DNA from: Candidatus Bipolaricaulota bacterium
Lineage (GTDB): Bacteria > Bipolaricaulota > Bipolaricaulia > UBA7950 > UBA9294
Length of the DNA stretch: 64,000 nucleotides
Reading direction: 5' to 3'
Assembly (NCBI GenBank): GCA_040752575.1
Contig: JBFMGK010000003.1
Location: 115,794-179,793, forward strand
Positions 2,196 to 36,400 of this stretch are shown here, piece by piece (position 1 is the stretch's first letter; each line of letters begins with the position of its first letter). A program made the translations under genes and the position numbers. Below the pieces are notes generated by a model. That model was not told where the DNA came from. It made no database searches and was given only the letters and a program-made list of their open reading frames with translations.

Positions 2196-2300
2196 GACGC
2201 GTCTCCGACGGTGAGTCTCGAAGCATATCGCCCGTTGCCACGCCGCACCAAGCGGGCTTGCCAAGCGGAGCCGTGAGCCGTACTTTGAGGGGGGAGGTCC

Positions 2301-3359: not shown

Positions 3360-3412
3360 CTCCGCTCTCGTCCATCGTCGGGGAGCGAGGTGCGTTCACG
3401 GCCTGCGAAGCG

Positions 3413-3622
3413 CTAGAGATAGTCGTCGTCCTCTTCGTCGTCGAGGTCCTCATCGTCGTCGAAGTCGTCTTCCTCTTCGATCCACTCGAGCCTCACCGGG
3501 TCCTCTTCGACGACCTCGAGCAACGCCTCGCACTCCTCGCAGCGCAGGCGGTTGAAGAGCGACAGTTCCTCCTTGTCGACGTCGAAGGCCGCGTCGCACA
3601 CCGGACAGACGATCTTGCTCAC
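3413..3622 (-). CDS. LysW/ArgW-like zinc-ribbon protein with an acidic tail, lacking C-terminal EDWGE
   Basis: GTG start after AAGGAGG. Sequence MSKIVCPVCDAAFDV...CEECEALLEVVEEDPVRLEWIEEEDDFDDDEDLDDEEDDDYL. Confidence 0.75.
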   Translation of the reverse strand: MSKIVCPVCDAAFDVDKEELSLFNRLRCEECEALLEVVEEDPVRLEWIEEEDDFDDDEDLDDEEDDDYL

Positions 3623-3891
3623 AGTGCCCTCCTTGACTTCGGCATCGTACGGCAACGGGCGCTTCGCAGCGCGCCCGGATCGCCTTCCCTGCGCTGCCGG
3701 CAGTCCCGAATCCCCGCTCGACTTACGGCTCTTCACGCGCCTCTCCCGCTCTTTCCGATCCTTCGCCTCACCGGCGGCCTGTCCCGAAAGAAAAGCGTAG
3801 AGCCAATGGCATGTTCAGGCCGCAGGATAGCCAGGCTTCCCAGGGGGCGTCAATAGCGCGTTGGGGTCCCTTGGTCCGCCGGCGACCGGGG

Positions 3892-5283: not shown

Positions 5284-5301
5284 AGCGCTCCTCGCTCACG
5301 G

Positions 5302-11300: not shown

Positions 11301-11553
11301 GCGTAAGGGCCAGCTGTACGTCGACGTCCGCCAGCTCCTCTTCGGTCGCCTGCATCATGGCCTTGCGGGGATACCCCTCGGCGTAGACGCTTGTGAGGGC
11401 AGAACCGAGGACTTCGCGGACTGCCGGAGGAGTCAGGCTCTCCGAAGCGATGAGGATGATCCTCTCTCGCTGTCTTCGCTCCTCGGCGGATAGCAGGGCG
11501 ACCGTCTGCGGATCGACGTCAAGGGCTCGTAACGCAGACCAAGGCTGGCTCAT
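8368..11553 (-). CDS. glyA-gcvT: Serine hydroxymethyltransferase / glycine cleavage T-protein (GlyA-GcvT) fusion
   Basis: N half: LIASES, YAEGYP, NVQPLSG, GGHLTHG, TTHKTL (PLP Lys). C half: RTTPLH..H..LGA..VPFAGWQMPVWY, EHNAVR..AGLFDLGHMG, RTGYTGE, GLAARDSTRTEAG. One continuous 1061-aa ORF. Confidence 0.95.
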   Translation of the reverse strand: MSQPWSALRALDVDPQTVALLSAEERRQRERIILIASESLTPPAVREVLGSALTSVYAEGYPRKAMMQATEEELADVDVQLALTRRYADRRFYKGTEIADIVESLAARRVAEGFATPDVPAEHILANVQPLSGAAANLAVYEAFVKPGETVMGMALTEGGHLTHGSQFNVTGRRYRIVPYAVDPATGRLDYERMRALAREHRPKMIIGGFTSYPWQPDWAAFRRIADDVGAILLADVAHTAGLILGKVYPNPIGHAHVVSFTTHKTLCGARGAVLLSTDAEIAARLDAAVFPGLQGGPHVDKFAALAVALQLARTPEYAALQRRIVENAAHLAHALEANGIPLAYGGTNTHVLLADLRLLPSETGFALLGEAASRILDLAGIVCNKNTLPGDQSAAHAHGLRFGTPWVTQRGMGKQEMEALAGIIASVLREIRPFSYIGLRGELPRGKIALHALESAKRDVASLIARVEPRAGVRPDVERRPGGTCAAFRVRGGRASSLLDQAAPGDVAGLSPGACCSTYFFDEKGLAISPALVGCLGRDEYAVLVPPSQVQTIKAWLVGLSDGYTLFDREDLFRKVEGPAVIEDVEVASLPKTASTWACEPLDEREIRRSVRELASLHPERFVLGKPYFVGGGDAVTSASGPSREEFVWVEAEEVRGRTTPLHEVHVALGAKLVPFAGWQMPVWYTSALEEHNAVRRSAGLFDLGHMGVFQVEGKRATQFLNEATSNYAGWLGDGGSQYAYLFDADGKVLDDIMVYRRAEDRYLVVVNAANEAKDWAWLRGLLEDRWIVDRSRAACCLGRGGVALRDLKEERGVIDLALQGPQSTRALSSVLSPADARRVAALERTQFVELALEGRQILVARTGYTGEPVGYEIFAAAPTALWLWNALLEAGQALGVRPCGLAARDSTRTEAGLPLYGHELEGPLGIDPFEAGFGSYVKLHKPFFIGRSAAVARASSLRRELVRFTVERGERPVRAGAAVLDKNGLILGRVTSSVSLADAQVGLALLERRGVSQGTALLFVVPTETGAAWTPGTRIPVPSRGVVAARFMAKGAPASDDAE

Positions 11554-19873: not shown

Positions 19874-21277
19874 TCAGGAGATGTCCGTCGATGTGGCGGG
19901 CTCGACCTCGCGGATCACCCGTCGGGTCCAGTTTCCCGACAGGAAGAACGCGAGTGCGATGGCCGCCGTGCCGAAGTTTGATGCGAGCATGGCCCACCAG
20001 ACCGCGAACGGTCCCATGTGCAGCGCGAACTCCAGGACGTAGACCAGGGGGACTCGCAACGCCCAAAGCCGGAACAAATCGAAGAACATCGAATGTCCCG
20101 TGCGGCCTGCCCCTTGGTACACGCCCATGATGACCTGGATCACACCCATGAACGGAAACGCGAAGGCCACGAGGAGGAGCATGTCCTGCCCCACGGCGAT
20201 CACTTCGAGGTCGGACACGAAGACGCGCATGAGCGATGTGCGCAGCGCGAGGACGAACCCAGCGGCAACCACAAGGATTGCCGAAGACCATGCCATTCCC
20301 GCCCATGCCGATCGACGAGCCCGTTGGGGCTTCCCCGCTCCGAGGTTCTGTCCGACCATCGTTGCGGTGGCCTGACCGAGTCCCATGGCGGGCATCAACG
20401 CAAACGAGATGAACGCGTTCCCGATGCCGAACGCACTCAACACGACGGTGCCGATGCGCGCCAGCGCTCCGTTCATGATCGCAAAGCCTAGAGCCGTTCC
20501 CGACTGGCCGATGGACGCGAGGCCTCCGATCGATACGATGCGACGCACGAGCGGCCACCGGAGCCGGAGGTCGGTACGATGGATGTGGACGCCGACGCGA
20601 CCCGAGAAGAGAAGCGCGTAACCGACGATACACATGCTCGTGCGCGCGATGACCGTGGCCAAGGCCGCGCCGGCCACCCCCCAGCGAGGGAACGGCCCCG
20701 GGCCGAAGATCAGAAGAGGGTCTAGGGCTGCATTGAGCGCGACCGATCCTGCCATGAGCCACAGTGGAGTCACCGTGTCTCCGACGCCGTTGAGAAGAGC
20801 CGTCACGACGAACGTGCCGAACATCGCAGGCAGCCCGGCGTAGAGGATCCGCAGATAGATCGAAGCAGCGTCCGTGAGAGCCGGCTCGGCGCCCATCAAG
20901 GCCAAGAGGGGGCGCGCCGCGAAGAACCCCGCCGCAGCGAGGATCACGGACAGAAAGGCGGTGAACGCCATCGTCTGACCTGCAAAGAGGTTGGCGTCTT
21001 CGTGACGGCCAGCCCCCGTGTACTGCGCTACCAGGGCGGTTCCGGCGATCGTCATCCCCCCGCCAACCGAGAGGACAAGAAACACGAGGGGCCATGACAG
21101 AGCGAGTGCTGCGATCCCCACGGCGCTGAAGCGGGCAAGCCAGAAACGATCGGTGAAATTGTACAGGGTTTGCAGAAGGTTCGACAGCATGATCGGCCAC
21201 GCCAGGCGCAAGAGCGAAGGCGAGATGGGGCCTTCGGTGAGCCGGCGGCGCAAGGCGTCGGGAATCTCCCTGGGCAT
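19874..21277 (-). CDS. MATE family efflux transporter
   Basis: LTEGPI..LLRLAWP, AQYTGA, GDTVTP, LDPLLIFG..GVAGAALAT and GQNLGA motifs. Confidence 0.95.
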   Translation of the reverse strand: MPREIPDALRRRLTEGPISPSLLRLAWPIMLSNLLQTLYNFTDRFWLARFSAVGIAALALSWPLVFLVLSVGGGMTIAGTALVAQYTGAGRHEDANLFAGQTMAFTAFLSVILAAAGFFAARPLLALMGAEPALTDAASIYLRILYAGLPAMFGTFVVTALLNGVGDTVTPLWLMAGSVALNAALDPLLIFGPGPFPRWGVAGAALATVIARTSMCIVGYALLFSGRVGVHIHRTDLRLRWPLVRRIVSIGGLASIGQSGTALGFAIMNGALARIGTVVLSAFGIGNAFISFALMPAMGLGQATATMVGQNLGAGKPQRARRSAWAGMAWSSAILVVAAGFVLALRTSLMRVFVSDLEVIAVGQDMLLLVAFAFPFMGVIQVIMGVYQGAGRTGHSMFFDLFRLWALRVPLVYVLEFALHMGPFAVWWAMLASNFGTAAIALAFFLSGNWTRRVIREVEPATSTDIS

Positions 21278-21328
21278 GGCGCCAGTTTACCGCGGATGCC
21301 GTTCTCTCTCCGTCCGACGTGCGCTGGC

Positions 21329-21358
21329 GTTGACAAATGTCAACACATGACTTAGGCT
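21329..21358 (+). promoter_or_regulatory. Promoter with palindromic operator
   Basis: GTTGACA-AA-TGTCAAC perfect inverted repeat (21329-21344) overlapping the -35 TTGACA, with -10 TAGGCT at 17 nt spacing. Confidence 0.75.
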
Positions 21359-21368
21359 TCCCTACGCG

Positions 21369-22061
21369 ATGGAAAAGAGAACGTTCGGCGACATTCTGCG
21401 CGAGAACCGGCTGCGCAAAGGGGTCAGCCTGCGTCAGCTCGCAGGGGCCACGGGAATCGACTACAGCCGCCTCTCGAGGATGGAAACGGGAACTCGACCG
21501 GCTCCCGATCTCACGGCGCTGCGCAAGTTGGCGAGAGCGCTGGACCTTGAACTCGCGGATCTCGTCGTCTCGGCGGGGACGGCCCGGGAGATTGTCGACG
21601 ATCTTCTGTGGAACGAACGCCTCCATGTAGGCGAAGCCCTGGCCGACGTAGCGGCCTACGAGCCCGGAGCTTCCCCGCTGGCGAAGAAGAACCGCTTCCG
21701 GGTCCAGGTGACTTCACGAAACGGGGCGCGATGTGTCATCCGCCTCGGCGGCGAGTCTCTCGTTGTCTTCTCGTTTTCCCGCGCGGTGATTCTCGACGTC
21801 GAGTTGCCTCCCCAGATGGCCTGTCTGTTTCGGGACGATCCCCGAGACGCGCTCGCTACCGCGGAGAACGTAATGCAGGGGAGCGTCAGAAAGGCGAGGC
21901 GTCTTGGGCAGTTGGTCAACACCGTCCTTGAGGTTCGAGGCGCATCGATCAACTCCTTGGAGTCCGTAACGTCGTTCGACGAACGAGGGCTGACGGTTGG
22001 GGAGCCAGCGTTCGTCTGGATCCCGGCGGCGGCGATTCGGACGCAGCCGGCAATTTCATAG
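21369..22061 (+). CDS. XRE-family HTH regulator with C-terminal TOBE-like domains
   Basis: FGDILRENR.RKGVSLRQLA..TGIDYSRLSRMETG. C-terminal KNRFRVQV and ENVMQGSV....GLTVGEPAFVWIPA resemble TOBE/Mop domains. Confidence 0.8.
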   Translation: MEKRTFGDILRENRLRKGVSLRQLAGATGIDYSRLSRMETGTRPAPDLTALRKLARALDLELADLVVSAGTAREIVDDLLWNERLHVGEALADVAAYEPGASPLAKKNRFRVQVTSRNGARCVIRLGGESLVVFSFSRAVILDVELPPQMACLFRDDPRDALATAENVMQGSVRKARRLGQLVNTVLEVRGASINSLESVTSFDERGLTVGEPAFVWIPAAAIRTQPAIS

Positions 22062-22071
22062 GAGGAAGGAC

Positions 22072-23553
22072 ATGCGTACGTTCGTCGTGATGGCAGGGGT
22101 CATCCTGGCGCTTGGGGTTGCGGCGACGGGGGCGACATCGTGGGTCGTCACCGTGGCCCATGGAGACCGTTCGGTCGAGGTGGACCTTCCGCTGACGGAG
22201 GCGTCGGTCGGAGGGACCGTCGCGTATCAAGGGCCGGTGATGACCCCCGGAGACGAGAACTGGAAGTCCGCGCGGTCGTACACGGGTATTCCCCTGACGG
22301 CGCTGCTGGCGAACGTCGGAGGGATGTCCGAAGGTGACGTCCTCTCGGTCATCGCGGGAGATGGTTACGAAAAGAAGCTCCCGTACGCGGCGATCTACGG
22401 CGAGACGCCTGCGGGAACGGCCATCCTTGGCATCGAGGTGGGCTCCGACGGTGACGACGCGCCGATCCTTGCGTTTCTTCCGCCCGACGGGCAGTTCTCC
22501 AACGACGACATGTTGGCCGCGTTGGGGGAGGAGTACGCGCACTACTTCGGGCAGGCTCCGTCGACGACCGGCCTGTTGGTGAAAGGCGTCGCCTACCTCA
22601 TCGTGAACTACGACGGCGGCGATCGACCGACGGCCTCCGAGGAAGCCGCGGTGGCGGCGGGGCCGGCGGAGGGCACCGTCCTGACCGTCGTGCGTGGCGG
22701 CGAGACGTTCGCGTATACGATGGCCGACCTGGAGATGCTGGAATCGTTGACCGCGCCCGGCACCTTCACGAACTCGGCGGGCGTCGACTACAGTGCAACC
22801 TACACGGGGATTCCCTTCTCCGCGCTGATCGGCGATGCGCCGGCTGACGCGACCGTTCGCGTCTACGCGGCGGACGGCTACTCCATGAACTACCCGGCGA
22901 GCCAGCTCATGGATTCGACGGAGGGCACGTGGGTCGTCGCCTACCAGGTCAACGGTTGGTACATGCCCCTGGATCCCGGCTATCTGCGAATCGTCCAGAT
23001 CGGCGACGCCAATCCCCACTTCACAAGCTCGCTCTCCGCACGCATGGTGAAGCGGATCGAGGTGCTCGGCGAGTACACTTCGTACGCGCTGACGCTCGTT
23101 GGAGAGACGACGCGCACCTTCAGCCGCGGCGAACTCGAGGCGGGAATCGGCTGCCCGTGCCACACCGCGACGGTGACGGTGACGTCGAAGGGCGAGACGG
23201 CGACCTACTCTGGGCTTCCTCTGTGGCGGCTCTTGGCCTATGTCGACGGGGGCACGGCACCCGCCGACGACGAAGGCATCCACTACAACGATGAGGACTT
23301 CGATGCGACAAGAGCCGGCGCCGGCTACACGATCACGCTCCAAGCCGAGGACGGCTACGCGCAGACGGTCTCCTCGGCCGTTGTCGCGGGCGATGATCGG
23401 TTCCTCGTCGCGTTCAAGAAGAACGGCGCCTTCCTGGATGCGTCGAGCGATGGAGCCATGCGCTTCGTCTTCGACGATTCGGTCGTGCTTCCTGAAGGGA
23501 AGAGCCTCAAGTCGGTGAAGTTCCTGACGACGATCCTCCTCACCCTCGAGTAG
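22072..23553 (+). CDS. Secreted protein with three molybdopterin-oxidoreductase-like domains
   Basis: Signal peptide and three YxGxP(L/F)..L(L/I)...ADGY-like units. SD AGGAGG. Confidence 0.75.
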   Translation: MRTFVVMAGVILALGVAATGATSWVVTVAHGDRSVEVDLPLTEASVGGTVAYQGPVMTPGDENWKSARSYTGIPLTALLANVGGMSEGDVLSVIAGDGYEKKLPYAAIYGETPAGTAILGIEVGSDGDDAPILAFLPPDGQFSNDDMLAALGEEYAHYFGQAPSTTGLLVKGVAYLIVNYDGGDRPTASEEAAVAAGPAEGTVLTVVRGGETFAYTMADLEMLESLTAPGTFTNSAGVDYSATYTGIPFSALIGDAPADATVRVYAADGYSMNYPASQLMDSTEGTWVVAYQVNGWYMPLDPGYLRIVQIGDANPHFTSSLSARMVKRIEVLGEYTSYALTLVGETTRTFSRGELEAGIGCPCHTATVTVTSKGETATYSGLPLWRLLAYVDGGTAPADDEGIHYNDEDFDATRAGAGYTITLQAEDGYAQTVSSAVVAGDDRFLVAFKKNGAFLDASSDGAMRFVFDDSVVLPEGKSLKSVKFLTTILLTLE

Positions 23554-23559
23554 GGCAGC

Positions 23560-24597
23560 GTGAACGCTGTGCGTGGAGAGGGGCGCGGCCGCTTGGAGAT
23601 CCGCGATCTGGTTCTCATTGCGCTCCTCTCCGCGGCCGGCGGGGTCCTATCGACCTACATCGGCTATCTCGGGAATCTTGTGAACCGCATGTTCGGCGTC
23701 CCGTTCGGCGCCGGGCAGATCATCGCGGGGTTCCACGTGATCTGGCCGCTGCTTGCCCGAGCGCTCGTAGGGCGTTTCGGATCCGGAACCCTGACCGGTT
23801 TGACCAAAGGGGCCGTGGAGCTGTTCACCGGCGGAACGCATGGCGCGGTCATCGTTTTCATCTCCGCGATCGAAGGGCTGTTCGTCGACGTCGGGCTGTC
23901 CGTGACCCGCCGCCGTTCGCTTCCAACCACAATGCTCGCGGGTGCGCTGGCCAGCGCATCGAACGTTGTCGTGTTCCAGGCGATCTACTTCTCCGGCGTA
24001 GCGCTGGGTTTCCTGGGTACGATGGTCGGTCTGGCCCTCGTCTCGGGCGCCGTGTTTGGGGGGTATCTGGCTTGGGATCTCGAGACCCTGTTGGTTCGGT
24101 CGCGAGTTGTGGCGGCGAAGCCGAGCGAGCCGCGCAGCCTGAGCCCATGGCGTCGCGGGGCCGTGCTGCTGCTGGTCGGCGCCTTCCTCGCCGGGGCCGT
24201 CGGATTCTACGTGTTGGTGTTCGACCCGTTCTCCTCGCCGGGGACGGCGGAGGTGCAGGGCGCCGTTGAGGTCACGGATCCGTTCTTCTACAGCGAAGAT
24301 GCCTGGACGGAGCGGACGGTGAATGCCGAGCTGCGCGGAAGCGCAACTTACGTCCCGCCAGCCAACTACACGGGGATCCCCCTCCAAGCGATCCTCGCGC
24401 GTGCTTCACCTCGGGATGAGGCGACGCGCCTACGCGTCGTTGCCTTCGACGGGTACGAGGCTGAGTTTGTCCTGGCCGACGTTCTTGACGATCCGAACCT
24501 CCTCCTCACGTTCGACGGCGAAGCCCTGCGGCTTGTCGCCCCAGGGTACGATGGCGCGTATTGGGTTCGGCAGGTGGTTCGACTTGTCGTGGAGTAG
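23560..24597 (+). CDS. ECF transporter S component fused to a molybdopterin-oxidoreductase-like domain
   Basis: RDLVLIALLSA..G..RALVGRFGSGTLTG..E S-component pattern. C-terminal YTGIPLQAIL...VVAFDGY...WVRQVVRLVV. Confidence 0.8.
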   Translation: MNAVRGEGRGRLEIRDLVLIALLSAAGGVLSTYIGYLGNLVNRMFGVPFGAGQIIAGFHVIWPLLARALVGRFGSGTLTGLTKGAVELFTGGTHGAVIVFISAIEGLFVDVGLSVTRRRSLPTTMLAGALASASNVVVFQAIYFSGVALGFLGTMVGLALVSGAVFGGYLAWDLETLLVRSRVVAAKPSEPRSLSPWRRGAVLLLVGAFLAGAVGFYVLVFDPFSSPGTAEVQGAVEVTDPFFYSEDAWTERTVNAELRGSATYVPPANYTGIPLQAILARASPRDEATRLRVVAFDGYEAEFVLADVLDDPNLLLTFDGEALRLVAPGYDGAYWVRQVVRLVVE

Positions 24598-26029
24598 CGA
24601 CTTCGATCTCGAAGTGCGCGACCTCGTCGTGCGCTACGGCGATCGGCAGGAACCGGCTCTGGACGGAATCTCCGAGGTCATCGAGCGGGGAGAGGTCGTC
24701 GCGATCTCGGGTCCTTCGGGTTGCGGGAAGACGACGCTTTGCCGCGTCCTCTGCGGCGTGATTCCCGGGCTTGTCCCGGCTCAGGTCACCGGGGAGGCTC
24801 GGCTGGGGGACAGGCGGATCGGCCACGAGGGGGCCGAGATGCTGGCGTCGTCGATCGGCTTTGTGCAGCAGGACGCCGATGCGCAGATCTGCACTCTCAG
24901 CGTCTGGCAAGAGGTGGCCTTCGGTCCGGAGAACTTGCGGCTTGCGGAGGAGGAGATCCGGACGCGGGTTGCGGACGCCCTTAGCGACCTAGGGATCGAG
25001 TCTCTCCGAGACCGAAAGACGACGACGCTCTCCGGCGGAGAGAAGCAACGATTGGCCGTCGCCTCGGTCCTCGCAATGCGCCCCGGCATCCTCCTTCTCG
25101 ACGAGCCGACTGCGAATCTCGACCCGCGCGGCGTTCAGCAGCTCTTCGCCCTGCTCGCGCGAACCACGCACCGCGAAGCGCAGACCCTGATTCTTGTCGA
25201 GCATCGGGTCGAAGCCCTGCGTTCGCTGGCCCCACGCCTGGTCTTGTTGGAACGTGGCAGAATCGTCCGACGCCTCTCGGCATACGCGCCATGGGATCTC
25301 TCCCCCCTTGGATTGAGGGGAGACTGGCCTCCCGCGGCGTCGGAGACGAAGGCGAGCTTGACTCTCGCCTCCGCGCGCCATGTCACCTTCCGCTATCGCG
25401 ACGGCGGGCCGTTGATCGAGGACCTGAGCCTCGACCTGCGCGGCGGCGAAGTGCTTGCCGTGATCGGCCCCAACGGTGGCGGAAAGACGTCGCTTCTGCG
25501 TCTTCTTGCCGGCCTCGCGCAGCCGCTCGAGGGGCGCGTGGAGCGCCCTCGCACGGTTCGCGTGGGCTTTGTCTTCCAGCATCCGCACCACCAGATCTTC
25601 GAGCGTACGGTGCGGCGTGAGATCTGCTTTGCCCCCGCGTTGTCCCCCGAGAACGGGGAGTCCCGTCTGCGCGAGGCACGGCTCGACCACGTCGCCGGCG
25701 CGGCGCCTCTTTCGCTGAGTTTGGGCGAACAACGCCGGCTCACCGTCGCGACGGCGATGGCGCAACACCCCAACATCCTGCTGTTGGATGAGCCGTTCAT
25801 CGGACAAGACCGACAAAACGTGCTGTGGGTCATCTCGTGCCTTCGGCGCGTCGTGGCCGAGGGGGGAGCCGTCGTCCTCGTGACGCACGACATTCCCCTC
25901 GTCGACGCACTGGCTGACCGAGTGCTGTTTCTCGACCGCCGCACGGCCCTCCTCGGACGTCGCGACGAGGTCTTTGCATCGTTGCGTGAACGGGGCGACA
26001 CGCCGTTCACTCCGGAGGCGTGGCGTTGA
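24584..26029 (+). CDS. ECF transporter dual-ATPase (A-A') component
   Basis: Two Walker A motifs (GPSGCGKTT, GPNGGGKTS), signatures LSGGEKQR and LSLGEQRR, LLDEP twice, EVAFGPEN. Start uncertain (24551 or 24584). Confidence 0.9.
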   Translation: MSWSSDFDLEVRDLVVRYGDRQEPALDGISEVIERGEVVAISGPSGCGKTTLCRVLCGVIPGLVPAQVTGEARLGDRRIGHEGAEMLASSIGFVQQDADAQICTLSVWQEVAFGPENLRLAEEEIRTRVADALSDLGIESLRDRKTTTLSGGEKQRLAVASVLAMRPGILLLDEPTANLDPRGVQQLFALLARTTHREAQTLILVEHRVEALRSLAPRLVLLERGRIVRRLSAYAPWDLSPLGLRGDWPPAASETKASLTLASARHVTFRYRDGGPLIEDLSLDLRGGEVLAVIGPNGGGKTSLLRLLAGLAQPLEGRVERPRTVRVGFVFQHPHHQIFERTVRREICFAPALSPENGESRLREARLDHVAGAAPLSLSLGEQRRLTVATAMAQHPNILLLDEPFIGQDRQNVLWVISCLRRVVAEGGAVVLVTHDIPLVDALADRVLFLDRRTALLGRRDEVFASLRERGDTPFTPEAWR

Positions 26030-26775
26030 GCGACGTGGGCCTGCACGGCACATCTCCTCTGGCCAACGTCTTTCTGCTCCTTTGTCTTGTCGGGGCCACG
26101 CTGGCCGCCCCGAGCCTCGCGGCGGCCGGAGTCGTTCTGACGGCGATGGCGGCCCTTGCGGTTGCATCCGGCGAACGCCCCCTTTCTCTTCTGCCGCGAC
26201 TTCGCCGCCTCCTTGTCTTCGCCTTCGTGCTGTTTCTTGCCCAGGCTCTGTCGACTCGCGGTGGAACGGCCCTCGTTACGTGGCCGGTTCGCATCACGGA
26301 CGCGGGGATGATCGCGGGCGGACGGATGGCTGTGCGATTCCTGACGATCCTCTCGGCCAGCGCGCTGTTCGTGCGCACGACGGACCCTGACCGGCTATCG
26401 CAGGCGCTCGTTCGTCTGGGCATTCCGTATCGCTTTGGCGCGCTTCTCGTGCTGTCCCTTCGTTTCGTGCCGTTCTTCGAAGACGAGCTTCGGTCCGTGC
26501 GCGAAGCGCAGAAGATCAGAGGGCTCGCGGCCTCGGTTCGCAGTCCACGTCGGCTTCTCCAGTCCGCACGATACACGTTCCTTCCCGTGCTCGTGTCCGG
26601 GCTCTACCGCGTGGATGCCATCACCATTTCCATGAAGACGAGGGGGTTCGGCCTCTACCCGGATCGAACCACCGCCCGCCCGATGCACCGCAGCCCGTGG
26701 ACGATTCTGACGCTGTTCGTCGCGGCCCTCGCGTTGGCTGCGGCGCTCGCGATCGAAACCAGGGGGTGGGGATGA
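26020..26775 (+). CDS. ECF transporter transmembrane T component
   Basis: TTDP..L..AL..LG.P, LRFVP, AQKIRG and MKTRGF (the two conserved X-R-X motifs of EcfT). Confidence 0.92.
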   Translation: MALSDVGLHGTSPLANVFLLLCLVGATLAAPSLAAAGVVLTAMAALAVASGERPLSLLPRLRRLLVFAFVLFLAQALSTRGGTALVTWPVRITDAGMIAGGRMAVRFLTILSASALFVRTTDPDRLSQALVRLGIPYRFGALLVLSLRFVPFFEDELRSVREAQKIRGLAASVRSPRRLLQSARYTFLPVLVSGLYRVDAITISMKTRGFGLYPDRTTARPMHRSPWTILTLFVAALALAAALAIETRGWG

Positions 26776-27344
26776 AGAGTGACATCCGTCCAAGTTGGTT
26801 GCTGGGTCTCGTTGCCATGGCGCTGGCGATGGTCGTTCCGCTTGCCGTTCGCATCGCCCTGGGGCCGCCGGGAAAGGAGGTCGTGCGCGTCGACGCGAAC
26901 GGCGAGAGCCGGCGCTTCACGCTGGCTGCTCTCGGGCGGCTGCCCGGCCTGACGCGGCAGGGCGAGGTCCAAAACCAGTTCGGAAACTGGCGCGATGCCG
27001 GGGTCTATCGCGGACCCTTCGTGCGCGAGCTTGTCGCGGGCTTGCCGTACGACGAACTCCTCGTCGAGGCGCAGGATGGATACGCGGCAACGATCTCGCG
27101 CGAACGCGTCGAGGACGATGCCTATCCGATGATCCTCGCAACCTCGTGCGACGGCGTGAGCGTCCCCGAGTGGGAAGATGGACCGAGGATCGTCGTGCTC
27201 CCCGAGTCCGGACGCGTCAGCAACGCCGAGTACGGCGTTGTCTCCGCCGGCAGCACGTGGGTCAAGAACGTGGCCCGGATCGTGCCCCGTCGCCGGGGCA
27301 CGGAGATCCTCGACGACGAACCTCCCGCAGAAAGCGAGCCATGA
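26772..27344 (+). CDS. Membrane-anchored molybdopterin-oxidoreductase-like domain protein
   Basis: N-terminal TM, then YRGPFVRELV...EAQDGY..GPRIVV..WVKNVARI. ATGA overlap with ecfT. Confidence 0.7.
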   Translation: MKSDIRPSWLLGLVAMALAMVVPLAVRIALGPPGKEVVRVDANGESRRFTLAALGRLPGLTRQGEVQNQFGNWRDAGVYRGPFVRELVAGLPYDELLVEAQDGYAATISRERVEDDAYPMILATSCDGVSVPEWEDGPRIVVLPESGRVSNAEYGVVSAGSTWVKNVARIVPRRRGTEILDDEPPAESEP

Positions 27345-27409
27345 TCGGCCGCGTTCCTGAGCGCGCCCCACGTCACCTCGCCGCGGCAAGAGGGAGTACC
27401 TCCACCACC

Positions 27410-30400
27410 CTAGGGGGCTGCATGGCGGACGAAAGCCGGGGCCTCCGTGAGGCACGCCAGACCGACATGGTCGCGCCAGTACCCGAGGACGGGACGCAGA
27501 TAGACCCGTTCGCCCAAGATGTCCACCCGCAGAAGCTCTGCGGCGAGTTGCGCGACACCTTCGCCATGACCGGAGGCGAGGATCTCGCCAAGTAGTTCGA
27601 AAGCCAGAGCAGCCTCTGCCGGCGTATAGCGCCAGCCGAGACGGGCAAAGTCCGAGAAGACGAGCCGCCCATCCGCAGCGCGTGCCGTCGCCGCGAAGGC
27701 CTCCCATGCGGCAAGACCGGCACTCCGCAGCTCGACGTCCCCGAGAGCGCGGGCGGCGATGAGCAGGATCTCGACCCGCGCCGCGGCTTCCGCAATGCCG
27801 GCGGGTTCCAGGTTCAGAACGTTTCGAGCAATGGCGGCGAGGGCCGCCGCGGCTTCCGCGGACCTTTCCGTGGGCGTCAGCACGGCCTCGGCGAGGCCGC
27901 GAGCGACAAGGACGACGTCGGTCAGACCGGCGAGCAGATCCGACTCGAGGGTCGCCGACACCGTGCCGTCGTCCAACACGTGGCGGCAGACGGCCGTCAC
28001 GAAGCCGCCGGCCATCTCTCCCGCGTTGCGGCGCGCCGCGTCCGATGCACCTGCTGCCGTTGTGATCCGAGCCAGCCCGAACAGGATCGATGCCTGGTCT
28101 GCCGCAAGAACGCGCGGGTCACTCGTTGTGAAGTCAACTCCTTGCTCGGTCGCTACGATGCGCGTTCCGTGGACGAGCGAAGCCGTTCCATCTGCCGAGG
28201 TTGTCAGCGTCTGTCGCAGCCACTCGACCTGCCAATCGACGGCCGCCGAGACGTAGCTCTGGAGATAGGCCGCCAGGCCGTCGCCTCGCGGCGTCGCAAG
28301 GAAACCCGCCTCGCGGGCCAGCGTCCAGCCTAGGGCCGCGGGGCTCACGTCCTCCGCCCTGTCGACGAAACCGACGCCACGCTCGACGATCGGAACGCCC
28401 CCCGAACTCGGCAGAACGATCGGAGCTCCAAACTCCGGCGGTGCAGGCAACCCCGCCTCTCTGGCGAGCGACGGGGCGTCGAAGAACGTCGTCTGCGCAA
28501 ACTGACTCAGCGGAACACCAAGACCCGACTCGCCGAGCAGGACGCCCAAGTTCGCCAACGACGCGGCGGTCGCCTCGGCCGACGCTTCGCCGAGCCCGTC
28601 CAGGGTGACGAGGTCGTCGAGCGCGACCGAAAGGCGCATGGCCTCGTGGGTTCGGTAGTCGACGGCGGCATCGCGGAGCGCACCGCCCCAGGCGTCGTCG
28701 GCCGTGCTCAGAGACACGTCGGCGCATGCTTGGCGGGGAGGAATCGGCTCGCCACGAGCGTCGATGGCCGACAGGGTCACGCAGTTGGTCAGCGTCTCGC
28801 CCAGAGGCCGATCCTCATCGATGCGTACTTCCAGAGTCCAGCGTTTGATCTCGCCGGCCTCGAGGGAGTCGTAGGTCCAGACGAGCGTCTGCCCGTCGAC
28901 GGACACGGGAGCGGGCTCCGCCGAGAGCAGATGCACGCCCGGCGGCAGGACGTCCGTCACGAGGACGCTATAGAACGCTTCAGCCGTCGGGTTCTCTGCC
29001 TCCATCACGTAGCGCACGATGTCGCCGGGCCGAGTCCACGCGACGCCCCGATACGGCGAAGCGGGTTCCACGCACGCCCGGCGGTCGAGAACGGGTGCCT
29101 TGAGGAGGGTCGAACCCTCTTGATCCTCGACGCGCGCGGGAAGCTGCAGATCCAGCGCGTCGAGCGTTCGCCCGACATGGCGACGAATGTGCGCGCGAAT
29201 CCGATCCGCGTCGACCGGTTCCGCGAACCCCGCCGCCGAAGGGAGCGCCGTCAGCGCGAGGCCCAGCTCAAGCGGCGTGGCGCACCAGGACAACAGGTCG
29301 GGCGCCCCGGCGAAGGCCTCCGCCTCATGGTTCCAGAACCGATCGTCGAAGGCGAGAACTGCAGCACGAATCTCCGCCGACAAGTCCGCGAATCCGACGG
29401 AATGGGCGGCGAGCAACGACCGCAGCGCCCCAAGCTGCCCGCCCAAGGTCGGCGGCTCACAGACCGCACCCTCGACCGGAACGGCGTCCCAGCGCTCACG
29501 GTACACGCCTTGGCCCGTCCAGAGGTGCGAGAGGACGAAGGACGCGCCCTCTTCGAGGAGCTGGCGAGCGATCTCTGTGGATCGCGCGCCGGAGAACACG
29601 TCGAGCGTGCCCTCGAGGGCCTCGGCAACCAGGCCGAGACCCAGCGCTGAGACGCGATCGCCGGGGAGCCATGACGCGTTGCTGGGCGTCGCCGAGTCCG
29701 CGAGAACGCGCTCCGTCCCTCGACGGTGTGCGGTCTCGAGGGTTGAGAGGGCCATCTGGGCAAGCGATGCGATCCGGCCCGGGAAGGCGAGCGGGTCCAC
29801 GGGAATCTCGGCGAGAAGGGCCTGAGCTTCGGGGTCCGCTGTCAGGCGCGCAACCTCGCACAGGCCAAGGAGAACCGAAGCGTGGTCGAACAGCTGACTC
29901 GTACGGTCGACGGCTTCATACGTCGTCCTCCCGCCCGTCGTGCGCGCCGACGAGACATGCGGCAAATACGAAACCCCGTCCGGCCCAGGGACTTGCAGAT
30001 CCTCCAGGGCGCTCACTTGAGCGGCGATGCCTGCGACGAGGGCACGCACGAGGGCTTCGTCCTCGGACGAGCGTTCGACGCTGGCGAGGATCTGAGAGGT
30101 CTCCTGCGCCTCTCGTAGGAGGGTCATTCCCAGAGCTGAGGGGACGATCCTCGTATCGAACGTCGCCGGATTCCAGGCGAGTCCCGTGACAGGTTCCCTC
30201 CCGATCACGGGATCTCCGGCGAAGAACGGTATCAAGGTCGGACGGACTTCTGCGGTGGGCAACGACGCAGCGATCCGGCCGTCGAGCGACGTGAAGCCCT
30301 CGATGGCGTCAGACCCCAGGCCGAGGCCGGAGTGGAGGATCACCGCGACGAGATGGGCGTCGGCGTCGTCCTCGCGCCCGATCCCCGAGGCCTGAAGCGC

Positions 30401-33400
30401 ATACGCTCCGAACATCCCGATGTCCGTCTGATACCAGGGGCTGTCGTCGAGTACGCGGAGGCCGCCGCATGCCGACTCGGATCCCGTCTCGACGAGACAC
30501 AACCATCGCTGAAGGACCGGCGCGAAGTCCGCGCCCGCGTTCGCAGAGACTCCGAATAGGGTTCCGAAGCCGTCTCCTTGAACGATGCGCGCCCCGCTCT
30601 CCGTGAGCGCGTTGTCCAGTTGCAGCGCTCCGTCGTCGACCACGCTGCGGACGTACGCTGCCAGCCGGCCGAGAACCTGGGCGGCATCCTGCGCATCGCC
30701 GCCCTGCGCGAGACGGCGAAGCGCGCCGACCGCAAGACCCATGTCGAGGGCGGTTGTGCAGAACGTGCCACGGTCCAGGCGATACAGCCCAAACCCCAAG
30801 CTTCCGTCCCACGCATCGCGCTCGAGGGCGTCGTAGGCTTTCCATGCGGCCTCGACGTTGCCTGCGACGAGGGATCCGTAGATCCCGGCGAACTGCGACG
30901 CCAACGCGGTGAATACCCCGGCCGTGGTCGACGGCTCGACAAACGTTCCGTCGGACCGTTGGCGTTTCGCGAGGCATATCTCGGCAGCGTCGCGCAGTCG
31001 GGAAGCCACATCGCCGTGAACGCCCGCGAGGTCCGCGGCCTCGTCCGTGGCGATCAGGAGCAGGGCGACATCGATGGTCGATGCGAGAAGGCGTTGGGGT
31101 TCAGCGTCGCTTGGCGAGCGGCCGTAGAACTCGCCGTCCGGAGCCGCATGATAGACGGCAATGGCCCGGGCGGCGCGATCCAGCACGGAAGCCGCCCCCG
31201 CTTCGAGCGAGGAAGCCAGCTCGCGTTCTCCGGCCGGCCAGTCGTTGGCCCCGCGTACCCAGGCGAGCGTTCGGGCGGCTCCCCAGATGAGCGCGACCTG
31301 ATCGAACAGGACGCTGGCATCGTCGAGGATCTCCAGCTCGCCTGTGGCCTCCCTCTCGCGAGCCTCGTGCGCCACGTGAGTCGTCGCGCCGTCGGTTGAC
31401 GCAAGCAGAGCCCCTTCGAGGACCTGGAGCTTGTTCGCGAGGCCTTCAGCAAGCACCCAGCCTGTGTAACGATCGGCGGCATCTTGCGAGGTCACTCGCG
31501 CGGCTGCCGCTTGGGCACCGCTCAACAGGCCCATCCCGAGATTGCTTGCGACGATGCGGCGATCGATCTCGGTCCACTGCCCGCTAGCTCCCCACGTCGA
31601 ATCGCGCGAGGCCTCAAAGACCGGCTCTCCGCCCGCGTACTCCAGGGCGATCCATCGTCCCGCGGGAGGGCTGTCGAACGTGGAGAGCCCGGCGGCAGCC
31701 GCCAGTTCAGCCAGTCGCTCCGCCAGAGCCGCTTCGAGCGAAATCCCGGCCGCCTCGGCGCGTGCCGCGATGCGCGGCGCGCGTTCCAGCGGAACTCCGA
31801 TACTCGATAGAACAGCTACCTGAAGAACGTTGTCCGTGGCCGCCTGTCCTAGGTCATGGGCAACGGTCCTCGTCCACGTCGGGAGTAGCGTGTCGGGGAA
31901 GCGGTCGTTCGTCCCGCTCTCGGCGGCGAACGACGCGAACTCCGACGCGGCGAACAGCGCGATGTCGGTCTGGAACCACACCGCCCCCGCTACAGCTTCG
32001 ATCCCCAGGCATCCGCCGCTTCCCAACGTCTCGGCCGTCTTCCGCAAGACGGGCACCTCGACGACTCCGCCGGCGCCGTCGGCGAGCCAAGATCGGGCGA
32101 TAACCGCCGCAGTGTCGGCGTCATCCGCGTCGACGTCGTCGGGAACGAGACTCCGCTGATCGGGGGCGATGACAGCACCGTCCGCGTCGCGACCGGTAGC
32201 CTGCAGACGATTGACGTAGCGTCGGCCATCGACGACAGGTTGATCGACGACCGCATCCAGGTGAACGGTCAGAGCCTGCCCGATGGCCAGCGTTGCGTCG
32301 AGGTCGAAGAGCAAGCTGTCCCCCGCGTCGCTCGGCTCGGCGGAGAAGATGCGGTCGGGGGTCGTCACACGCGCCGAGCCCCGCACGTACGACATCTCCG
32401 GCGGCAAGCGATCGCTCACGTCGACCGAAAAGGCGGTCGCGGTGCCGACGTTTCGTACGACGAGCGCGAAGCGGACGGTATCACCGAGCTCCACGCGATC
32501 GTCTGCGACGTTCCGGCCGTCTCGCAGCACGGCGCTGACGGACTTATGGGTCACCAGCGCGGGAACGTCGGCAGCGCCGAATAGGACGGCGTCATCTTGA
32601 TCGTCCAGGTCCGTATCTGCGCGAACGCTCGCTGACGCGTTGGCCGGAATCGCGTTGTGGTCTCCGTCGAAGCCGTCCGCCGACATGCGGTTCTCGTACG
32701 CGGTCCCGGCCCGCGTCGGGCCGTTGACGCGTGCCTGGAAGCGCAGAGTAAGAACGTTGTCCGGCGCAAGGCGCGCGTCGAGCGGCCACCAGAGGCTGCT
32801 CGGCCCACCCAGCGGGTCGGCGGTGGCCGTTCCCGTGCCGAGCGGCCATCGCGCGTCGGTCGTCCCGGAGACGTACGTGAACGGAGGCGGAAGAGCATCC
32901 CGGACGTCGACGTCATAGGCTGTGCCCAGTCCGACGTTCTGCACGACAAGCTCGAACGTGACCAGGTCTCCCTCTCGCACGGCGGCGGTCGCGCCGAGCC
33001 GGGTTCCGCCGCGCACGACGTCGAGAACGCGCTTCTCGGTTACCAGAGCTGGCTGTACAGCTTGGAGACTGGCCGAGCTCGCGTCATCGAGGTCGTCGTC
33101 CTCCGGAACGGTGTCCCGCGCGTCGGCTGGAATGGCGGCCCCGGCTGCATCCTCGCCCGCGGCGAGCATGGTGTTCTCATAGCGCAGGCCCTGGCGAACG
33201 CGGTTCGACACCTTGGCCTCGTACGACAACGTCAGAGCTTCTCCTGGCTCGAGCGCTGCCCCAAGAGACCAGGTCAGCGTGGGTCCGGGCGCGCCCGCCG
33301 GCGCGACCGTCGAGGAACCCCTCGGCCACGCGGCGTTGGTCGGGCCGCGGTAGTCCAGCTCTTCGGGAAGGGTGTCCACGACCGAGACATTGAGCGCTGG

Positions 33401-36400
33401 ACCGCTGCCCACGTTGCGGACGACGAGCGTGTACGCGACGACATCGCCCGGCTCGACGTTTTCCGACGACACGGGACGTGCGCCGCGGAGCACGCGATCG
33501 ATCCGCTTTTCGGTGACCAGCGCGGGAGCGCCGACGCGAATCGTTGCAATTCCCGTGTCATCGGGGTCAGAGTCCTCAGCGTCGTCATCGTTGGTGTCGC
33601 CGAGCGCGGCGTTCGAGATAGGGATAGCAGTCCCGAATCCGTCCTCTCCGGTGGCCGTCGCCACGTTGGTCAGGCTCACGCCGGGAGGTGCCGAGAGCGT
33701 GACGCGGGCGGCGAACTCCACCGTCAGCGTTTCTCCGCCGGCGACCGTCGCGTCAAGGGAGGTCGAGAACCCTCCCGCGCCGTCCGCCAGGCCGAGGCTT
33801 CCGCCGGCGACCGGCGCGCTCACGGAGTAGGTCCCCGAACCTTGCGGCCCGGACGTATCCACGACAATTCCCGTGGGCAGGTCGTCCTCCAGCTCCACAG
33901 CGTAGGCCGTCCCCTCTCCGACGTTGCGAACCACGATGCGGTAGATGATGAGGTCGCCGTACAAGAGGGGGTCGACGACCCCGATCGAGGATCCGCCGCG
34001 TCGCACGTCGACGACCCGCTTGTCCACCGACAGAGCGGGTTCCGCGACGTCAATGGAGGCGATCCCCGTATCATCAGCGTCCGGATCTTCGGCGTCGTCG
34101 TCGCTCAGGTCGCCCGCCGCCGCATTCGAGGCGGCAGTGGCCGCTCCCAGATTGTCGACTCCGTTCGCCTGCGCCACGTTGACCAGCGCGATCCCCTGAA
34201 CCGCCGCGCTCGTGACGCGCGCGGTGTAGTCCGCCGTCAGCGTTCCCCCTCCGGCGAGCGCGGCGCCGACCGCCGCCGTGAACGACGTTAGGCCGCTTGT
34301 CAGGCCGAGGGAGCCGGAACTGGCCGGGGCACTCACCGTGTACGTTCCCGCCGACCCCGGTGCCGCAGTCTCCGTCAGGAGACCTGTCGGGAGGGTGTCG
34401 GAAATGCTGACGGCGTAGGCTGTTCCCTCTCCCACGTTCCGGACCACGAAGCGATAGACGATGAGGTCGCCGGGCTCGACGGGGCCGGACGTTCCGACAC
34501 TGCTGCCGCCTCTCAAGACGTCCGCGATGGTCTTGTTGACCTTGAGTGCCGGACGATCGGCTTCGATCGTGACGCTCGCGCTGCCGGCCGGAATATCCCT
34601 GCCGCTCCCTTCCTGTCCATCTCCCGTGACGATATTCGTCAAGATGTCGCCTTGTTCGAGCGTGCTCTGCGCGATCGCGCAGTAGCGGAGGGTCAGCGAC
34701 GCGCCGACGGCGAGCGTGGCGTGAAGGGAGGTCGTGAAGGTGGAGCCGCCCGCAGGAACGGGGAACGTCCCGCTGCCGCCGGCCGACAACGTGTACTCGC
34801 CGTTATGTCCGGGCGCCGCCGTGTGGTAGACAAGGCCGTCGGGCAGAGTGTCGGCGAGGTCCACGTGGAAGGCGATGGCCGCTCCGTTGTTGGTGATCGT
34901 CGCCATGTACTCGACCACATCCCCCGACTCGACGGTGGAGGTCGGCCAGATGCTCGCTCCGCTTCGCCAGACGTTGGTGATCGACTTCGCGGTCGTGAGT
35001 GCCGGACATGTGCACAGGGCTGCGGCGATCGAGGCTTCGTTGTCTGCCTCGGAACACTCGCAGATTACGCCCGCCTCATCTGCCACCACCCGGATCGCGT
35101 GCGGCGTCGCGCAGAGCAGGGGCGGCGTCGTGTAGCTCAAGGAGTAGGTTGCGCCTGCGTCGATGGACTGCGTCTCCTCATGGACGCGTGTCCCATCCGC
35201 GTACACGCGGATCGAAACGCCGGTTGCCGTCTGCCCGCCGGTGTTTCGGATGCTTGCCGTCACGGTGAACGTATCGTCGAGATTGCAGACGGCGCCAACG
35301 TTCGACACCGCGAGATCCGGGGCGCTCACCGAGAAGGTCGTCGAGGCGGTGTTGTTCGCGCCCGTGCATTCACAGACGGCATTCGCCGGATCGGCCGTCG
35401 CCGTCACGGCGTAGCCCGAGCCACATCCGACAGGGGCGGCGAAGGGAACCGTGATGGTTTCGCTCTCTCCCGCTGCAAGGGCGACCGTGGTTGACGCCTG
35501 TCCCGTTGCGGCGCCCGTGATCCCCACGACGACGCCCGACGGCGCGATGCCGCAGCCGGAGTTCCGCACGGTGACCTGGGCGGATCCCGGCAAACACGGG
35601 TTCGGCGCGCTCGCAGTGAATGTCGTGATCACGAGGTCGGGAAGCGGCGACGTGTAGACTGCCGTTCCGGTGTTGTTCGTGCCCGTGCACTCGCAGACCT
35701 CGTTCCCGGTGTCCACCGTGGCCGTGAACGTGCAATCACACGTTGCGCAGCCGCTCCACGCTCCGGCGACCGGGAACTGCACGACGACGCTCGCTCCGGC
35801 TGCAAGGCTCGTCACGCGCTGGCTCGCGAACGCGAGGCAGCCGCTTGTCGCGAGGCCGACGTCGAACGCCCCCGCGGATCCGCAGCCTGTGTTGGTCACC
35901 GTGACGGCGGCGAGTCCCGAAATCGTGTCGCCTGTGCAGCCTAGACCTGCAAAGTCGATCCCGCTCGCGATGAGATCGGGGAAGGCGACGGGCAGAGCCG
36001 TCGCGCAGAACGTGTTGTTCGTCCCGCTGCACTCGCAGAGCGTATTCGAGTCATCCGCCTCGATCTGGACGGAGATCTCGCACGGCGAGCAAGCGTTGGC
36101 CGTCGTGGTTCGGTCGACGGCGAAGGCCTGCGTTCCACCTCCGGCGGCGAGGCTGACGCCCGTGAACGTCTGAGTCCACTGATCGAGCACGGTTCCGCCA
36201 CAGCTTGCTCCCGCGAACACCGTGAACCGCATCGGGATGTTCGTCGTGAGGGAGCTTGCGCCGCAGCCCTGGTTGCGCAGAGTGACACTCCCTTGGATGC
36301 GCAGTTGCCCGTCTCCCGCGCAGGACGGAGCCAGCGTGCTCGCGTGCACGACGACATCGGGAATCGTCGGCGTGTAGACAAGGGACGCGATGTTGTTGTT

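Follow-up and report, generated by a model that had tools for sequence, protein, structure and literature searches.

The pterin cofactor of molybdenum and tungsten enzymes is, in the textbook view, too unstable for uptake, and each cell must make its own; the known exception is a nematode. The usual route imports the metal as an oxyanion through WtpABC, TupABC or ModABC and builds the pterin from GTP with MoaA, MoaC, MoaE, MoeA and MoaB, and so supplies enzymes of the aldehyde oxidoreductase (AOR) type. Here we describe a six-gene operon in a 64-kb stretch of the genome of a Candidatus Bipolaricaulota bacterium (contig JBFMGK010000003.1; hereafter the window) that serves the same end with an energy-coupling factor (ECF) transporter, which would import the finished product; in relatives without the ECF system, the transporter and biosynthetic genes of the usual route replace the operon. 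The operon belongs to the supply system for the tungsten/molybdenum (W/Mo) pterin cofactor, and we read it as a dedicated group I ECF importer of the preformed cofactor, with a probability of roughly 0.6. The substrate is most likely the tungsten cofactor (Tuco) or a late, metal-bearing form.

Our search of the literature on uptake, transporters or salvage of the molybdenum cofactor (Moco) returned nematode work only. Dietary Moco uptake by Caenorhabditis elegans, in a protein-bound form, was the sole documented case of external Moco that we found, and it differs from the present one in that the organism is an animal, no transporter is named in the parts of the reports available to us and there is no sequence relation (PMC7849362, PMC9793310).

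The closest described transporter is YkoEDC of Bacillus subtilis, a group I ECF system (YkoE structure, 5EDL). In both systems a dedicated operon encodes a PF09819 S component together with EcfT and two EcfA units. The operon described here differs by a seventh helix and a fused outer domain on the S component, and by two further genes that bring four more such domains. It also has no thiamine pyrophosphate (TPP) riboswitch; it has a regulator with a Mop/TOBE-like tail, and its relatives have Moco/Tuco riboswitches.

The domains themselves resemble two groups of proteins. With the sulfite oxidase (SUOX) family enzymes (SorA 2blf, SoxC 2xts, chicken SO 1sox, YedY/MsrP 1xdq) they share the core Moco-domain fold, but they lack the cysteine that ligates Mo and, according to Pfam, the dimerisation and haem domains, and they are predicted to be extracellular and present in several copies. 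PruR, from Agrobacterium and other Proteobacteria (7kos, 7kou, 7kom, 7kp2, 7rkb), has the same small non-catalytic SUOX fold outside the cytoplasm, again without the Mo-binding cysteine. It also has the Asn/Asp-x-Tyr stretch found here, and its tryptophans W160 and W70 each have a counterpart in two of our five domain classes. In the parts of the published description available to us, PruR is a single-domain signalling protein that acts with the cyclase/phosphodiesterase DcpA and binds monapterin-type pterins; its fold is a degenerate SUOX fold in which W70 takes the place of the Mo-binding cysteine, the pterin ring is stacked between Y104 and W160 and bonded to N102, and the pocket is, according to the authors, too short for Moco (PMC11194511). 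By contrast, the domains of the operon are multiplied, one of them is fused to a transporter, and their genetic links are to Mo/W cofactor supply, not to cyclic di-GMP (c-di-GMP).

Open reading frames and Pfam matches in the window place six close-packed genes on the forward strand, between 21369 and 27344 (Table 1), and thereby confirm the operon proposed in the original prediction. Adjacent genes overlap or almost abut, with the stop of the ATPase gene overlapped by the start of the EcfT gene and the EcfT stop codon overlapped by the p6 ATG as ATGA; a GGAGGA-type ribosome site precedes the ATG of p2. The start of the double ATPase is uncertain, the candidates being TTG 24584, ATG 24551 and GTG 24614. 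Hydrophobic N-termini, judged by eye, suggest a signal peptide or anchor in p2 and an anchor in p6; p6 alone gave no Pfam match. A consensus scan of 21200-27500 found no promoter-like site and two overlapping terminator-like sites inside the regulator gene, below the shuffle mean of 5.0. Among sequencing runs, no RNA run was listed for the region, and one DNA run contained 0.23 of the sequence words. The operon has the properties of a group I ECF system, namely a six-helix S fold and, next to the S gene, genes for EcfT and two EcfA domains; the host genome has one EcfT homologue, by tblastn, and one such S component, both in the operon. It is a conserved, previously undescribed variant of the ECF transporter. 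No description of such a system was found in the searchable literature, subscription journals and supplements lying outside the search, and PMC6092417 makes no mention of aldehyde, tungsten, molybd, vitamin, cofactor or ECF.

Table 1. Genes, domains and motifs of the operon, in nucleotide positions of the window
Feature	Position	Strand	Evidence
Regulator: XRE-type helix-turn-helix and C-terminal tandem Mop/TOBE-like module (~residues 106-226)	21369..22061	+	HTH_31 PF13560, E 5.2e-12
p2: hydrophobic N-terminus and three truncated SUOX/PruR-like domains	22072..23553	+	PF00174, E 2.8e-11
p2 domain D1	22144..22662	+	domain profile, E 1.8e-27
p2 domain D2	22690..23112	+	domain profile, E 1.5e-39
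p2 domain D3	23113..23550	+	domain profile, E 4.1e-29
CPCH motif at the start of D3	23152..23163	+	invariant, 13/13 D3 sequences
S component: six-helix YkoE-family core, seventh membrane helix and predicted outward-facing SUOX/PruR-like domain	23560..24597	+	PF09819, E 3e-19; PF00174, E 1.5e-5
S component, seventh helix (residues 196-220)	24145..24219	+	
S component, fused domain (DS)	24235..24594	+	
Fused EcfA-EcfA' double ATPase	~24584..26029	+	two PF00005 (ABC_tran) stretches; TIGR04521, E 8.4e-85; TIGR04520, E 1.3e-78
EcfT coupling component	26020..26775	+	PF02361, E 3.5e-27
p6: N-terminally anchored, with the fifth SUOX/PruR-like domain	26772..27344	+	
p6 domain (D6)	26862..27284	+	domain profile, E 1e-34

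All five SUOX/PruR-like domains share a YxG motif followed by AxDG and an aromatic residue, as had been noted from the window alone. Across 68 domain sequences, drawn from the window and 20 related loci, the tyrosine is conserved in 67, the first glycine in 68, the alanine in 63, and the aspartate, second glycine and aromatic residue in all 68 (Y 59, W 6, F 3). A search of the whole 2.16-Mb host genome with PF00174 reported only the S-fused copy; such a first-pass search being insensitive for so divergent a domain, we used a profile of our own instead, which found exactly five copies, all in the operon. The PF00174 matches on p2 and the S component, both above cut-off, begin at profile position 63-64 of 169, and the one on p2 covers only positions 63-163, with the N-terminal third unmatched; the domains are ~120-150 residues long.

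A phmmer search of whole p2 against PDB sequences gave no match at E <= 1. Using the domain profile against structures, we found PruR (7kos, E 4.5e-8) and SorA (E 6.4e-7). The structure model of D2, with a predicted local distance difference test score (pLDDT) of 87.5, was compared with 48,161 PDB representatives. Its top matches were PruR 7rkb (Z 14.0, root-mean-square deviation 2.6, 119 of 146 residues) and PruR 7kp2 (Z 13.8), with the SUOX-family enzymes at Z 9.1-13.5, a range given by ten SUOX/PruR representatives, and the best unrelated chain at Z 3.6. PruR chains also took ranks 1-7 in a Foldseek search with this model. The SUOX-type fold that had been predicted from the motif is therefore borne out by the structure model and by Foldseek.

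The suggestion that these domains are non-catalytic also stands, in that a cysteine occupies the Mo-ligand place in the hairpin in just two of the 68 sequences. The residue at that position is tryptophan in D1 and D6, tyrosine in DS and variable in D2, and D3 has a gap there. In the profile alignment the A-L-N-D-Y stretch of PruR lies over the A-x-D-G-Y of the family; the counterpart of N102 is aspartate in 68/68, and the counterpart of Y104 is aromatic in 68/68. Because A-x-D-G-Y aligns with the contact residues of PruR, we take the motif to be the pterin-contact stretch. The equivalent of W160 is a tryptophan in all DS (15/15) and all D6 (14/14) sequences, and a tryptophan stands at the W70 position in D1 (12/12) and D6 (14/14). 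Judged by these residues, all five domain classes are thus non-catalytic, and at least two of the five would retain a PruR-like pterin site.

The nearness to PruR also suits a different substrate. A small pterin other than Moco, of the neopterin/monapterin type or a folate precursor, could be bound as PruR binds its ligand and be imported or sensed by the transporter: PruR is the nearest solved structure, the tryptophan at the W70 position recurs in D1 and D6, and the pocket of PruR is described, in the portion of the paper at hand, as fitting small pterins only (PMC11194511). We consider this improbable. Such a pterin cannot substitute for the MoaA, MoaC and MoeA functions whose loss tracks the operon, FolK is found in 70/73 genomes of the host's family irrespective of the operon, the riboswitch of the relatives is of the Moco/Tuco class and not the tetrahydrofolate class, and the operon holds no DcpA-type partner (no GGDEF or EAL gene).

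The S component was modelled with AlphaFold from a 61-sequence alignment (pLDDT 85). The model shows six helices within residues 14-180 and a seventh at 196-220, followed by a beta domain. The C-terminus of an ECF S component lies in the cytoplasm, and because the S core ends there and the seventh helix crosses the membrane, the fused domain should face outside. Foldseek matched the model to YkoE (5edl, E 6.6e-8, template-modelling score 0.81 on the target), to ThiT (4muu, 3rlb) and to SUOX/PruR chains.

The original prediction held that the transporter would be of another kind if the S component clustered with, and bound, a known vitamin. The first half of this is what we find: the protein belongs to PF09819, scoring 69.8 bits where the cut-off is 25.2, and the membrane core has YkoE 5edl as its best match, with E 4.6e-7 by sequence at ~22% identity. 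The operon could then be an importer of thiamine or its hydroxymethylpyrimidine (HMP) moiety like YkoEDC, with accessory domains irrelevant to the substrate. Relatives are annotated as thiamin/HMP permease in the sources, and in one genus (g32) the operon adjoins a ThiB-like ATP-binding cassette (ABC) system. The host must import thiamine, because ThiC and ThiE are absent and no ThiD scores above cut-off. The second half, binding of the vitamin, is made unlikely by several observations. The thiamine contacts of YkoE, listed as Y46, W49, E77, Q95 and D131 in the part of the structural report available to us (PMC5037267), align to A56, H59, E87, E105 and F139, so that one of five, the glutamate, is kept in an alignment which at ~22% identity could be locally shifted; the stacking tryptophan is replaced by H59, which is invariant in the family. 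Rfam finds no TPP riboswitch in the window, and the single TPP riboswitch of the genome (74.1 bits) heads another transporter operon (G000 contig C36, 7291-12168, - strand, locus L128), which carries the gene of thiamine pyrophosphokinase together with those of an ABC transporter (permease, NMT1/ThiY-type binding protein and ATPase). Where the ThiB-like system is the neighbour, the TPP riboswitch is directed towards the ThiB genes, on the strand opposite to the ECF genes. Also, ThiC is missing from 180/184 genomes of the phylum irrespective of the operon. A thiamine or HMP importer is, on these grounds, very improbable.

The thiamine genes of the g32 locus L014 (2580-6552, - strand) comprise a TPP riboswitch, a ThiL-like gene, a ThiB-like gene (TIGR01254, 237 bits), a fused ThiP-like gene and an ATPase gene, and run divergently from the ECF regulator.

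A cofactor importer presupposes a need for the cofactor. The host genome, 94.7% complete, carries six AFOR_N (tungsten-type AOR) genes with open frames of 639-782 residues. Family searches of this genome found no MoaC, MoeA_N or PF00384. Tblastn with the phylum's own proteins found no WtpA, WtpB, MoaA, MoaC, MoaE, MoeA or MoaB, with generic ABC ATPases and a weak radical-SAM match as the only returns; MoaD, MoeB and MobA were not specifically searched, which leaves a weak point in the case. TupA-like, ModA and ModB queries gave nothing but one weak permease match, and the remainder of the window holds no Mo/W-related gene. In relatives with the biosynthetic cluster, the order is WtpA-WtpB-WtpC-MoaA-MoaC-(MoaE)-MoeA-MoaB, and WtpA scores 391 bits against a cut-off of 355. 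Six pterin-dependent enzymes with no visible cofactor synthesis or metal uptake therefore point to the import of something that contains both. Cyclic pyranopterin monophosphate or molybdopterin alone would be insufficient because the established pathway would then still require MoaD/E or MoeA (MoaE and MoeA were not found; MoaD was not specifically searched).

We surveyed 184 genomes of the phylum, mostly metagenome-assembled genomes (MAGs) 56-99% complete, with counts that are not tree-corrected and include related, non-independent genomes. The S fusion occurs in 64 of them, and every PF09819 protein in the phylum is of the fused kind. AFOR_N is present in 150 genomes. As markers of de novo supply we used MoaC (61 genomes), MoeA (MoeA_N, 71 genomes), WtpA-like (26 genomes) and TupA-like (21 genomes) proteins. 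Among the 74 genomes of the host's family, the host included, 51 have the operon only, 15 have de novo markers only, three have both and five have neither. All genomes of genera g2, g13 and g16 are of the de novo type; g6, g8 and g14 contain both types, and there the individual genomes fall into one state or the other. Where de novo genomes lack WtpA (G125, G129), TupA-like genes share contigs with moaC. The operon and the set of oxyanion transporter and moa/moe cluster are therefore almost mutually exclusive, and the co-occurrence with W/Mo enzymes and with loss of moa/moe genes that the original prediction looked for is seen both in the host and across the phylum. Of all carriers, none lacks AOR: 64/64 in the phylum and 24/24 outside it, 88/88 in total.

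The exceptions within the family can be described individually. In one of the three genomes with both systems (G121; the others are G122 and G158), which has WtpA, MoaC and MoeA, the operon is decayed (locus L022, ~1470-5530): the S gene is interrupted by a stop codon and has lost 4 residues of an invariant motif, the EcfT gene has a frameshift and the ATPase gene a stop, a 20-residue deletion and a frameshift, p2 retains a single domain and no regulator is left. The G122 bin (3.3 Mb, 720 contigs) has 6% contamination, and in G158 the moa genes lie on contigs of ~3.5 kb. The five genomes with neither system are G139, G149, G153, which is also without AOR, G176 and G180, where a 2.9-kb contig bears a fragment of p6. 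Family f3 has 50 AOR-positive genomes, of which 10 have the operon (one, G037, also with markers), 10 have markers only and 30 have neither. In the phylum as a whole, 98 of the 150 AOR-positive genomes are without any of the four markers; 60 of these have the operon.

Outside Bipolaricaulota, the RNA context of the operon links it to Mo/W cofactor metabolism. The Moco/Tuco riboswitch family RF01055 occurs on the operon strand in 16/24 loci (53.6-78.7 bits; gathering score 36), and the loci without it are six short ones (3.5-5.5 kb) and two archaeal ones. In 13 loci the aptamer directly leads a one-strand series of a one-domain protein, a two-domain protein, the S fusion, the ATPase and EcfT. 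The P3 stem is absent in 13/13 of the printed RF01055 alignments. In Bacillota the usual W/Mo route and the ECF system are both in the Moco/Tuco riboswitch regulon. In the part of Regulski et al. (2008) available to us, P3-less RNAs are tied to tungsten-cofactor metabolism, and two of them in Syntrophomonas wolfei stand before genes for a 'putative Moco-utilizing sulphite oxidase' (PMC2408646). By analogy, these genes may be of the operon's domain kind.

Two cases deserve separate description. A Pelotomaculum MAG has modA, modB (260 bits; cut-off 182.6), a modC-like gene, DUF364, a riboswitch, two TupA-like genes and then S-A-T; the TupA-like genes (E 2e-51 and 1.3e-73, neither reaching the equivalog cut-off) replace the domain proteins between the riboswitch and S-A-T. 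In the same MAG (locus L119, 10276-13032, + strand) a second riboswitch precedes the gene of a 736-residue protein that combines PKD repeats and a Shr-like haem-binding-type domain with a single SUOX/PruR-like domain. Furthermore, both cultured Anoxynatronum strains (L120, L121, 11215-11998, + strand) have a P3-less riboswitch just downstream of the operon, before a second, unfused PF12822 S component (E 3.4e-9).

RF01055 is absent from the window and from nine Bipolaricaulota loci, where an XRE-Mop regulator stands in that place; no Rfam family reached its gathering score anywhere in the window, and over 21000-23800 there was no match even at E <= 1. The DNA-binding domain of this regulator is XRE-type, unlike that of ModE. 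The original prediction had labelled its tail as TOBE, and this holds at the level of the family and is weaker for the window copy taken alone, where TOBE_2 scores E 0.013, below cut-off. Among 16 orthologues, TOBE is found in eight (best E 3.2e-4) and TOBE_2 in six (best E 5.4e-5), and the regulator profile matches the C-terminal domain of ModC (3d31, E 1.3e-6, residues 107-224), ModG (1h9j, E 1.1e-3) and, weakly, Mop (1fr3, E 0.19). On these profile matches the tail is Mop/TOBE-like.

The riboswitch and the Mop-like regulator fit the cofactor or the metal alike. In an importer of tungstate or molybdate, the SUOX-like domains or TupA-like proteins would pass the oxyanion to the S component. 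The tail of the regulator resembles molybdate/tungstate-binding Mop/TOBE modules, the two TupA-like binding proteins stand in for the domain proteins at the Pelotomaculum locus, 16 of the 24 outside carriers retain MoaC, so that imported metal could be of use to them, and Tuco-type riboswitches are described as commonly preceding tungstate transporters (PMC2408646, seen in part). Against this, the host and the 51 operon-only genomes of its family are without MoeA and MoaC, and the host by tblastn is also without MoaA, MoaE and MoaB; because MoeA and MoaC are absent, free metal could not be built into cofactor in the operon-only genomes. The conserved motif maps to the pterin contacts of PruR and not to an oxyanion site. 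We know of no oxyanion ECF transporter. A metal importer is therefore unlikely, and we favour the cofactor over the metal because fold and motif are of the pterin type and because MoeA and MoaC are absent from the 51 operon-only genomes.

From the gene content, fold, motif conservation, phyletic pattern and riboswitch linkage, which are observed, we infer the identity of the ligand, the hand-off between domains, the direction of transport and the ligand of the regulator. The earlier proposal, in which capture domains deliver to the S component a Mo/W pterin cofactor or its metal, finds support in this form. The secreted p2, the anchored p6 and the domain tethered to the S component would be non-catalytic relatives of the SUOX Moco-binding fold, trimmed as in PruR, that trap the labile cofactor outside the cell, protect it and hand it to the S component. 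EcfT and the double ATPase would power uptake, and the XRE regulator with its Mop/TOBE-like sensor tail would adjust expression to Mo/W status, a role that in Bacillota would fall to the tungsten-cofactor-type riboswitch. The imported cofactor would supply the six AOR-family enzymes of a cell without the biosynthetic pathway or a tungstate/molybdate transporter. The CPCH motif of D3 is a possible metal or thiol site.

A wider version of this picture is more tentative, and we would place it a little short of an even chance: most AOR-bearing Bipolaricaulota, with some Bacillota and Thermoplasmata, would be Tuco auxotrophs or scavengers in which a relay of surface domains strips and protects the intact cofactor and feeds the ECF importer. 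The source of the cofactor would perhaps be proteins of lysed neighbours, and the CPCH motif of D3 might bind the metal or the dithiolene while the cofactor is passed on. The Mo/W cofactor would then be a vitamin exchanged within anoxic communities.

Several points weigh against import of the preformed cofactor. To our knowledge, free Moco and Tuco are very labile, and their uptake by prokaryotes is not known. The W160-equivalent tryptophan is absent from all three p2 domain classes (0/39 in D1-D3), and the domains are PruR-sized, while the pocket of PruR is, in the part of that account available to us, said to be too short for Moco (PMC11194511). The domain family is widespread, with 6482 cluster representatives at E <= 1e-3 (165 at <= 1e-30), a breadth which means that the domain need not always bind a pterin. 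At the Pelotomaculum locus TupA-like genes take the place of the domain proteins, and outside Bipolaricaulota, where MoaC is commonly kept, the system accompanies biosynthesis instead of standing in for it, a pattern that would suit a metal importer too. The pattern in the phylum is itself open to objection: its genomes are not independent, and first-pass genome searches can miss weak matches, PF00174 having found one of the five domains. Finally, 38 AOR-positive genomes have neither system (f3 30, f1 4, f10 3, f6 1), two of them in f3 being single-contig genomes, 96% and 99% complete. Five of the 38 were searched for EcfT and had none, so no hidden ECF variant is present there. These 38 genomes imply that another supply route must exist, and the operon is not the sole answer to auxotrophy. 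The 38 include G005-G032, G035, G038, G047, G064 and G095-G097.

The order regulator-p2-S-A-T-p6 is kept in 20 Bipolaricaulota loci across two families, usually with genes for a MATE transporter and an asparaginyl-tRNA synthetase adjoining; the variants are G042, without p2, G041, with a small p2, and G128, with dispersed genes. A scan of one genome per species revealed 209 relatives, among them Bacillota MAGs, a Pelotomaculum MAG, Syntrophomonadaceae, the two Anoxynatronum strains, Thermoplasmata and Methanomassiliicoccales archaea. In nine outside loci the core begins with one to three proteins that carry one to four repeats; the S fusion, A and T come next. Members of the domain family also form tandem arrays, the longest with ten copies, or are built into giant surface proteins that bear PKD, SLH, Big and NosD domains.

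This spread of the domain bears on one more reading, in which the transporter is W/Mo-linked with some other substrate, for example a degradation product or another W/Mo-dependent nutrient, and the domains are general surface modules. The size of the family and its many surface-protein architectures are in keeping with this, as are the stand-alone domain proteins away from ECF genes in genus g26 and the small paralogues that adjoin sugar-type binding proteins. But all five host copies lie in one operon, the core layout of domain proteins, S fusion, A and T is kept from Bipolaricaulota to Bacillota and Thermoplasmata archaea, and the pterin-contact motif is invariant; we give this reading only a small chance.

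Should import of the preformed cofactor be correct, a dedicated prokaryotic importer would overturn the own-synthesis view for anaerobes. It would account for some of the AOR-positive genomes without markers (98/150), and for uncultured lineages a cofactor-rich extract with tungsten may be what culture needs. It would also represent a new ECF design, in which several outer capture domains, one of them fused to the S component, serve one transporter, an arrangement undescribed for ECF transporters. The 2008 'sulfite oxidase' genes behind tungsten-type riboswitches and the current 'thiamin/HMP permease' annotations would have to be reinterpreted. The two cultured Anoxynatronum carriers make the idea directly testable. 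The additions made here are the near-exclusive distribution, the decayed operon beside a biosynthetic cluster, the mapping of the motif to the contacts of PruR, the separate, TPP-controlled thiamine system and the counter-examples given above.

Other copies of the domain lie apart from the transporter. In genus g26, stand-alone proteins with two to three SUOX/PruR-like domains are encoded away from transporters (L036 6744-8288, + strand; L037 7296-8624, - strand), and their neighbours (KaiC-like, PAS/GAF-HD and a cation efflux protein) gave no functional lead. In the operon-negative loci L042 (1279-1821, + strand) and L043 (1371-1925, + strand), a 180-residue single-domain paralogue lies between a sugar-type binding protein (SBP_bac_1) and a zinc alcohol dehydrogenase. 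In a relative (L008, 592-706, + strand), a c-di-GMP-I riboswitch of 54.8 bits lies ~4 kb past the p6 end of the operon.

Directly downstream of the operon in the window, 27410-41281 on the reverse strand encodes a 4623-residue protein with seven DUF11 and three CARDB stretches, presumably a surface protein. Elsewhere in the window, a 1061-residue open reading frame on the reverse strand (8368-11553) fuses a serine hydroxymethyltransferase (PF00464) to an aminomethyltransferase folate-binding domain (PF01571).

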